From the NCBI RefSeq assembly GCF_003334815.1, contig NZ_QOWO01000007.1: a stretch of DNA of 64,000 nucleotides; one strand, 5' to 3'. The position numbers and the translations under genes are program-made. The notes beneath the pieces were generated by a model. It saw only the letters and a program-made list of their open reading frames with translations, searched no databases and was not told the origin of the DNA. This DNA is from Escherichia coli. Its GTDB lineage: Bacteria; Pseudomonadota; Gammaproteobacteria; Enterobacterales; Enterobacteriaceae. Shown here piece by piece: positions 63,553 through 63,578 of this stretch (its first letter is position 1; each line of letters begins with the position of its first letter).

Positions 63553-63578
<26 letters not shown>

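Follow-up and report, generated by a model that had tools for sequence, protein, structure and literature searches.

The overlap between ycjG and mpaA belongs to a common and well-described class, since 75 of the 663 overlapping adjacent gene pairs in the E. coli reference genome are convergent (PMC4161906) and, in a survey of 338 genomes, 7% of the overlaps between well-characterised genes were convergent (PMC2478687). Such overlaps usually originate when a frameshift or a mutated stop codon lets a 3′ end extend (PMC2478687). Like other convergent overlapping pairs formed by a lost or shifted stop codon, ycjG and mpaA are real opposite-strand genes with stops inside the partner's frame, and they share with that class a short overlap, its retention in relatives, and a 3′ extension that appears to follow a frameshift (PMC2478687, PMC4161906). 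Nothing essential distinguishes this pair from convergent overlapping pairs in general; its particular detail is that an apparently older overlap of 10 nt has been lengthened to 26 nt.

Other described systems resemble the junction in part. Excludons, as known from the Listeria model and the ExcludonFinder map, are also opposite-strand neighbors with overlapping transcripts, and the ycjG–mpaA pair is listed among them. However, excludons are characterized by reciprocal expression and opposed functions, whereas YcjG and MpaA work together in a single pathway under a common regulator; moreover, the ycjG–mpaA overlap includes coding sequence and not untranslated regions alone. Rho-dependent termination at convergent genes resembles the present case in the lack of a hairpin and in a bicyclomycin-sensitive drop of + strand transcription inside the partner gene. 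Bidirectional intrinsic terminators occupy the same place between convergent genes and end both transcripts, and canonical examples are found between ycjG and mpaA in four of the relatives sampled below (L056, L058, L060, and L062); in contrast to these, the E. coli junction has no hairpin with an A run on one side and a T run on the other.

Both the coding overlap and the transcript overlap of ycjG and mpaA are already known, from the RefSeq K-12 annotation and from a published list, respectively. Table 1 of the ExcludonFinder study (NAR 2025, PMC12288877) includes ycjG–mpaA among 165 convergent excludons of MG1655, and the same study places tpx–ycjG among 16 divergent excludons and mpaA–ycjG–tpx among three noncontiguous operons of this strain, the criterion for the MG1655 excludome being detection in at least 50% of 58 RNA-seq samples. 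An excludon is called there when the coverage-defined transcript boundaries of neighbors overlap, so that any expressed pair with overlapping coding sequences is listed automatically. As a class, excludon pairs were reported to be more syntenic than other neighbors and less co-expressed in single cells, with no figure given for ycjG–mpaA, and functional data specific to this pair were not found in that paper. Its authors called p19 validation of convergent excludons not feasible and noted that few 3′ overlaps are captured by p19.

The window, by which we mean the whole stretch of 64,000 nucleotides of E. coli DNA that was analyzed, includes the following features at this junction.

62613 to 63578, + strand: ycjG coding sequence (L-Ala-D/L-Glu epimerase, 321 aa; RefSeq b1325), with ATG at 62613 and TAG at 63576–63578, from the ORF list and the sequence.
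63553 to 64000, − strand: 3′ part of mpaA (murein tripeptide amidase, 242 aa; RefSeq b1326), with TGA at 63553–63555 (read from TCA).
63553 to 63578, both strands: the ycjG/mpaA overlap, 26 nt read by both genes, from the sequence and the ORF list.

mpaA continues past the window edge, and the full gene, read from locus L001, corresponds to 63553–64281. The overlap encodes YcjG residues 315–321 (TTGELHL) with part of F314 and, on the opposite strand, MpaA residues 236–242 (KDAIRPS) with part of P235. In this register, the third codon position of ycjG faces the second of mpaA, the second faces the third, and the first faces the first. Positions 58683–64000 of the window aligned with MG1655 (NC_000913.3) with 0 mismatches in 5318 nt, so published K-12 data apply directly; window positions are K-12 coordinates minus 1326317. 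RefSeq places ycjG of MG1655 at 1388930–1389895 (+) and mpaA at 1389870–1390598 (−), with an identical 26-nt overlap, and the ycjG–mpaA locus was found in 5414 of 5426 complete E. coli genomes.

Both ycjG and mpaA are genuine protein-coding genes. YcjG was 100% identical to the L-Ala-D/L-Glu epimerase of PDB 1jpd and matched the NCBIfam equivalog NF011708 with 677 bits over 321 of 321 profile positions; residues 1–237 of MpaA were 100% identical to MpaA of PDB 5hxd, and residues 1–236 matched the equivalog NF007897 with 479 bits over 236 of 237 profile positions. Both scores were well over the respective cut-offs. An annotation artefact, in which one 3′ end had been wrongly extended and the DNA were not truly common to both proteins, would fit published surveys in which many long convergent overlaps proved to be 3′-end extension errors (PMC2478687), and would fit an MpaA family model and a solved chain of 237 residues compared with 242 in the gene. 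However, a 3′ end is set by the first in-frame stop, and the stops of both genes are directly visible in the sequence. In addition, this part of the window equals MG1655 exactly, independent genomes from several genera show the overlap too, and the 237-residue form of MpaA would also overlap ycjG, by 10 nt. The artefact explanation is thus effectively refuted already, with next to no chance of being correct. The preliminary description had claimed a 26-nt coding overlap, and this was confirmed, as TAG on the + strand and TGA on the − strand each lie inside the partner's frame. It had also stated that both enzymes act on murein peptides, which agrees with the assignment of YcjG and MpaA to consecutive steps of murein-tripeptide catabolism (PMC2954226).

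We then determined how widely the overlap is kept. MpaA was used for a scan with one genome per species, and the closest 80 of 215 hits, all enterobacterial, were combined with K-12 and strain 214-4 to give 82 loci, in which the genes were located using tblastn and the frames were walked to the first stop. The two genes were arranged as follows.

Overlap of 10 nt: 45 of 82 loci.
Overlap of 26 nt: 27 of 82 loci.
Overlap of 4 nt: 3 of 82 loci.
Overlap of 33 nt: 1 of 82 loci.
Overlap of 47 nt: 1 of 82 loci (L024).
Gap of 88–331 nt, no overlap: 5 of 82 loci.

A tail-to-tail overlap was therefore kept in 77 of the 82 enterobacterial loci, and it is thus no chance ORF artefact. Apparent overlaps of 247 nt, and most of those of 47 nt, came from tblastn alignments that crossed stops and were rejected, as frame walking gave 10 and 26 nt.

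Among the 82 loci, the 26-nt form occurred in Escherichia, Salmonella, and Citrobacter only, and the 10-nt form was found in Enterobacter, Klebsiella, Kluyvera, Leclercia, Lelliottia, Kosakonia, Yokenella, Trabulsiella, and others. Junction sequences and a MAFFT alignment located the difference between these groups to a short site.

63576 to 63581, no strand assigned: site that is one base shorter in the Escherichia/Salmonella/Citrobacter lineage.

At this site, TAGGA precedes the conserved TGCCAGCG in Escherichia, Salmonella, and Citrobacter, and TGAGGC precedes TGCCAGCG in other Enterobacteriaceae, the exact position of the indel within bases 63576–63581 being ambiguous. With one base missing, the mpaA frame is shifted past the older TGA stop, and five residues are added to MpaA. 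In the 10-nt group, mpaA ends with ...CGC TGG CAG CCT CAG AGA TGA and encodes a 237-aa MpaA, its stop lying in the ycjG Leu-His codons; in this form, the third codon positions of both genes are opposite each other. The E. coli gene ends with ...CGC TGG CAT CCT AAA GAT GCA ATT CGC CCG TCG TGA and encodes 242 aa, with the stop within the ycjG Phe-Thr codons, where the mpaA stop reads TGA or TAA depending on a synonymous TTC/TTT difference in ycjG. By parsimony among the 80 closest species of the 215 hits, the 10-nt overlap would be older than the 26-nt overlap.

The junction has also changed within the Citrobacter youngae group. In L015, L017, L018, and L024, the ycjG stop TAG has become AAG or CAG, and YcjG is seven residues longer (328 aa). 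The same change creates a TGA for mpaA in three of these loci, giving an MpaA of 235 aa and again a 26-nt overlap, shifted by 21 nt; in L024, MpaA still has 242 aa and the overlap is 47 nt.

Next, we examined which of the two genes is constrained in the shared bases. Across 22 of the loci with the 26-nt form, mean pairwise identity was 0.62 over the final eight MpaA residues, as against 0.90–1.00 in the preceding four blocks, and 0.89 over the final eight YcjG residues, similar to the upstream blocks. In the overlap columns where ycjG position 3 faces mpaA position 2, nucleotide diversity was ~0.36, near the value of 0.468 at ycjG position 3 outside the overlap and some 25 times the value of 0.014 at mpaA position 2 in the gene body. 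In the columns where mpaA position 3 faces ycjG position 2, diversity was 0–0.09, versus 0.443 at mpaA position 3 elsewhere. These results show that the overlap bases evolve as ycjG coding sequence only, so that the MpaA tail follows passively and is without constraint of its own. An unconstrained tail fits the 237-position NCBIfam model, the end of 5hxd at residue 237, and the end of the alignment with Vibrio MpaA, the structure of which is alignable only to residue 235 of E. coli MpaA. The deposited 5hxd chain of 237 residues is without the last five residues (AIRPS), which are coded in the overlap (63553–63567).

In a consensus terminator scan, terminator-like sites were absent from both stops and from the sequence past them; the region contained two such sites, versus 1.9 expected from shuffled sequences, and neither was at the junction. 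The fold of the + strand RNA at the junction was no better than that of shuffles (z −0.43). On the − strand, the segment 63430–63600 folded better than shuffles (z −2.77), but the hairpin was rejected as a conserved element, as the consensus over 25 relatives reached −4 kcal/mol with no compensatory pairs.

The genes were apart in five of the 82 loci, namely L056, L058, L060, and L062 (gaps of 284–331 nt) and L053 (88 nt), and the overlap is thus dispensable. In the four loci with the longer gaps, a conserved 39-codon ORF with a hydrophobic C-terminal half lies between the genes on the ycjG strand (MIEWEDESVATQDELMKRMIDTVAAVVLVLIVVAGLYFA in L056), followed by a canonical bidirectional terminator (AAAAAAACCCGCAT...ATGCGGGTTTTTT); the 39-aa product had no NCBIfam match. 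To the eye, the L053 spacer resembles a REP-type palindromic element (…GCCCGGTGGCGCTGGCGCTTACCGGACCTACGG…), another route to a broken overlap.

Two observations concern the flanking genes. Upstream of mpaA, the short K-12 frames ymjC and ymjD (L001 5681–5934, between ycjY and mpaA) are annotated as a fragment of an NAD-dependent dehydratase pseudogene in strain 214-4 (L002 5909–6046), so the so-called ycjY–ymjD–ymjC–mpaA operon includes a decayed gene. On the other side, a dsRNA site lies at 62453–62474, over tpx codons ~7–14 near the tpx 5′ end (K-12 U00096.2 1386794–1386815; PMC7373196 Table S3); with 88301 sense and 5765 antisense reads, it is the second row, following rydC, among the 21-bp sheet rows listed, and tpx overall yielded 1563–5161 RPM of captured dsRNA (PMC7373196). 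The site implies + strand RNA over the tpx start, perhaps from a long ycjG leader, and it matches the divergent excludon tpx–ycjG (PMC12288877).

We then turned to the transcripts. The preliminary description had held that the two convergent transcripts must overlap, and this is correct: full-length mRNAs have at least 26 bp in common and, because the overlap is coding, no functional mRNA pair can have non-overlapping ends. Published excludome, Rho, and antisense data show far more than this minimum. Two RNA features are relevant here.

63579 to 63969, + strand: untranslated 3′ extension on the ycjG side, antisense through mpaA, up to a published Rho region (PMC7815308).
63270 to 63432, − strand: C-rich, G-poor stretch of RNA, a candidate Rho loading region for mpaA transcripts, from base composition.

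Adams et al. (2021) reported a + strand Rho termination region at K-12 1390286 (PMC7815308 supplementary file 2), which is window position 63969, antisense to mpaA and 391 nt beyond the ycjG stop; the position is coarse, as the method uses 800-nt windows. Reads upstream and downstream of it numbered 47 and 14 without bicyclomycin and 58 and 68 with the drug (Rho score 3.94, p 7.2e-5; PMC7815308), and we infer that these + strand reads represent ycjG read-through. Since the region lies ~390 nt inside mpaA, the transcript overlap far exceeds 26 nt. It is classed as 'antisense', as are many other entries of the same table. Compared with Rho-dependent termination as described at other convergent genes, Rho is known here in one direction only, from this coarse region of modest score, and base composition points to it on the − strand: in 80-nt windows, the C/G ratio of the − strand RNA was 1.5–2.1 over 63270–63432, a stretch that begins ~120 nt past the mpaA stop and is antisense to ycjG. 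This composition is suggestive of early Rho loading on mpaA transcripts. The Term-seq tables of the same study contain no discrete 3′ end for ycjG or antisense to ycjG, and its tables list no Rho region antisense to ycjG on the − strand (PMC7815308); the lack of a discrete ycjG 3′ end is as expected for weak, Rho-terminated transcripts. Outside the window, a Term-seq 3′ end is reported on the − strand at K-12 1390559 (which would be window position 64242; L001 ~5560), 39 nt inside the mpaA frame and classed as ORF-internal (PMC7815308 supplementary files 1 and 3); transcripts may be processed or terminated prematurely there, early in mpaA.

Antisense reads are consistent with such read-through. 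In the wildtype strain of Huang et al. (2020), sense and antisense values were 51.2 and 10.0 RPM for ycjG and 73.9 and 17.6 RPM for mpaA (PMC7373196 Table S1c), antisense reads thus being ~20–24% of sense reads for both genes. Computed from these values, the antisense density over mpaA was ~40% of the ycjG sense density, a value compatible with read-through extending several hundred bases, and that over ycjG was ~11% of the mpaA sense density.

One interpretation of these overlapping transcripts is a functional convergent excludon, that is, a junction under selection for mutual repression by transcription, in which colliding polymerases and cutting of the mRNA duplex by RNase III would set the MpaA/YcjG ratio or timing. 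The inclusion of the pair among the 165 convergent excludons (PMC12288877), the extension of ycjG-strand transcription ~390 nt into mpaA (PMC7815308), and the conservation of the contact in 77 of 82 loci all agree with it, as do p19-captured dsRNA reads on ycjG and mpaA, which at 25–112 RPM were above those on ycjY or ycjF (PMC7373196). Nevertheless, we consider it unlikely. The listing is automatic for expressed pairs with overlapping coding sequences. The ycjG and mpaA units are both listed in the PgrR regulon (PMC5934670) and act at consecutive pathway steps (PMC2954226), so mutual exclusion would be counter-productive and would defeat the pathway. Sense RNA falls, rather than rises, in the RNase III mutants rnc-14 and rnc-38 (from 51.2 to 39.0 and 33.5 RPM for ycjG and from 73.9 to 41.6 and 21.6 RPM for mpaA; PMC7373196), a comparison of single RPM values with no replicates shown, in which global normalisation may hide modest effects. 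Among the Table S3 rows listed (PMC7373196), no 21/22-bp p19 duplex is assigned to ycjG or to the junction, and the two labeled mpaA lie in the 5′ half of that gene, outside the window. The promoters are weak (~50–75 RPM for ycjG and mpaA versus 660 for tpx, about ten-fold lower), and interference scales with promoter strength. Finally, the synonymous sites of ycjG are almost as variable in and around the junction as in the rest of the gene, and thus no embedded RNA signal is apparent. The presence of a terminator between ycjG and mpaA in some enterobacteria likewise speaks against a strong effect. Together, this indirect evidence leans against a strong effect, and the mutual interference of the two transcripts that the preliminary description had proposed is not favored. 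All of these expression data come from conditions under which PgrR presumably represses both genes, and interference could matter only on derepression.

The conserved contact can also be read as an excludon inside a co-regulated pathway, not between opposed functions, with the junction kept by selection as a coupling device between consecutive enzymes. On PgrR derepression, the Rho-terminated read-through from ycjG, which covers over half of mpaA in antisense, and that from mpaA would then damp each other. The finding that terminator-less contact occurs in 77 of 82 loci across many genera speaks for this possibility, since the retained contact could reflect selection for coupled transcription and not mere difficulty of separating the ends; we rate it as quite unlikely. 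Another proposal starts from the − strand: transcripts from the ycjY–mpaA promoter would cross ycjG in antisense into tpx, co-transcribing mpaA and tpx and repressing ycjG. This would explain why mpaA–ycjG–tpx is one of three noncontiguous operons in MG1655 (PMC12288877), why antisense reads over ycjG reach ~20% of sense reads (PMC7373196), and why neither a Rho region nor a 3′ end is reported antisense to ycjG (PMC7815308). However, the operon call represents coverage thresholds of two flanking overlaps, not single spanning molecules (PMC12288877), and antisense reads over ycjG are sparse, at ~11% of the mpaA sense density. The C-rich, G-poor − strand RNA soon after the mpaA stop favors early Rho termination, and tpx, with ~9-fold the expression of mpaA, possesses a promoter-like site of its own (62523–62496), so that read-through would add little to it. 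In addition, the SMRT-Cappable-seq supplements consulted mention neither ycjG nor mpaA. Such a spanning operon is, in our judgment, very unlikely.

We therefore regard the junction most probably as a true but passive tail-to-tail coding overlap, the product of gene compaction and a shifted stop and not of selection for regulation. According to this explanation, ycjG and mpaA abut in most sampled Enterobacteriaceae with neither a spacer nor an intrinsic terminator, the commonest state being a 237-aa MpaA with its TGA in the ycjG Leu-His codons and a 10-nt overlap. The Escherichia/Salmonella/Citrobacter lineage would have lost one base after the ycjG stop, shifting the mpaA frame, which would then be read five codons further to a TGA or TAA in the ycjG Phe-Thr codons, to give 242 aa and a 26-nt overlap. 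With no terminator hairpin to stop it, RNA polymerase would run on from each gene into the antisense strand of the partner, and the untranslated RNA would then be ended by Rho, on the + strand ~390 nt inside mpaA, as published, and presumably also on the − strand. The two mRNAs are therefore complementary along a stretch of hundreds of bases and have the anatomy of a convergent excludon; the regulatory effect of the overlap under normal conditions is probably small.

The discovery value of the ycjG–mpaA junction is thus small. If the coupling reading were true, the overlap would fix the MpaA:YcjG ratio or limit the flux from murein tripeptide away from recycling; interference, if shown under derepression, would represent antisense coupling of cooperating peptidoglycan-recycling enzymes and be moderately interesting. 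As it stands, the pair shows in a clear-cut way how a convergent overlap can grow longer, through a one-base change, a new stop in conserved codons of the partner, and a freely drifting tail, and it also illustrates the reliance on Rho of convergent genes without a terminator.
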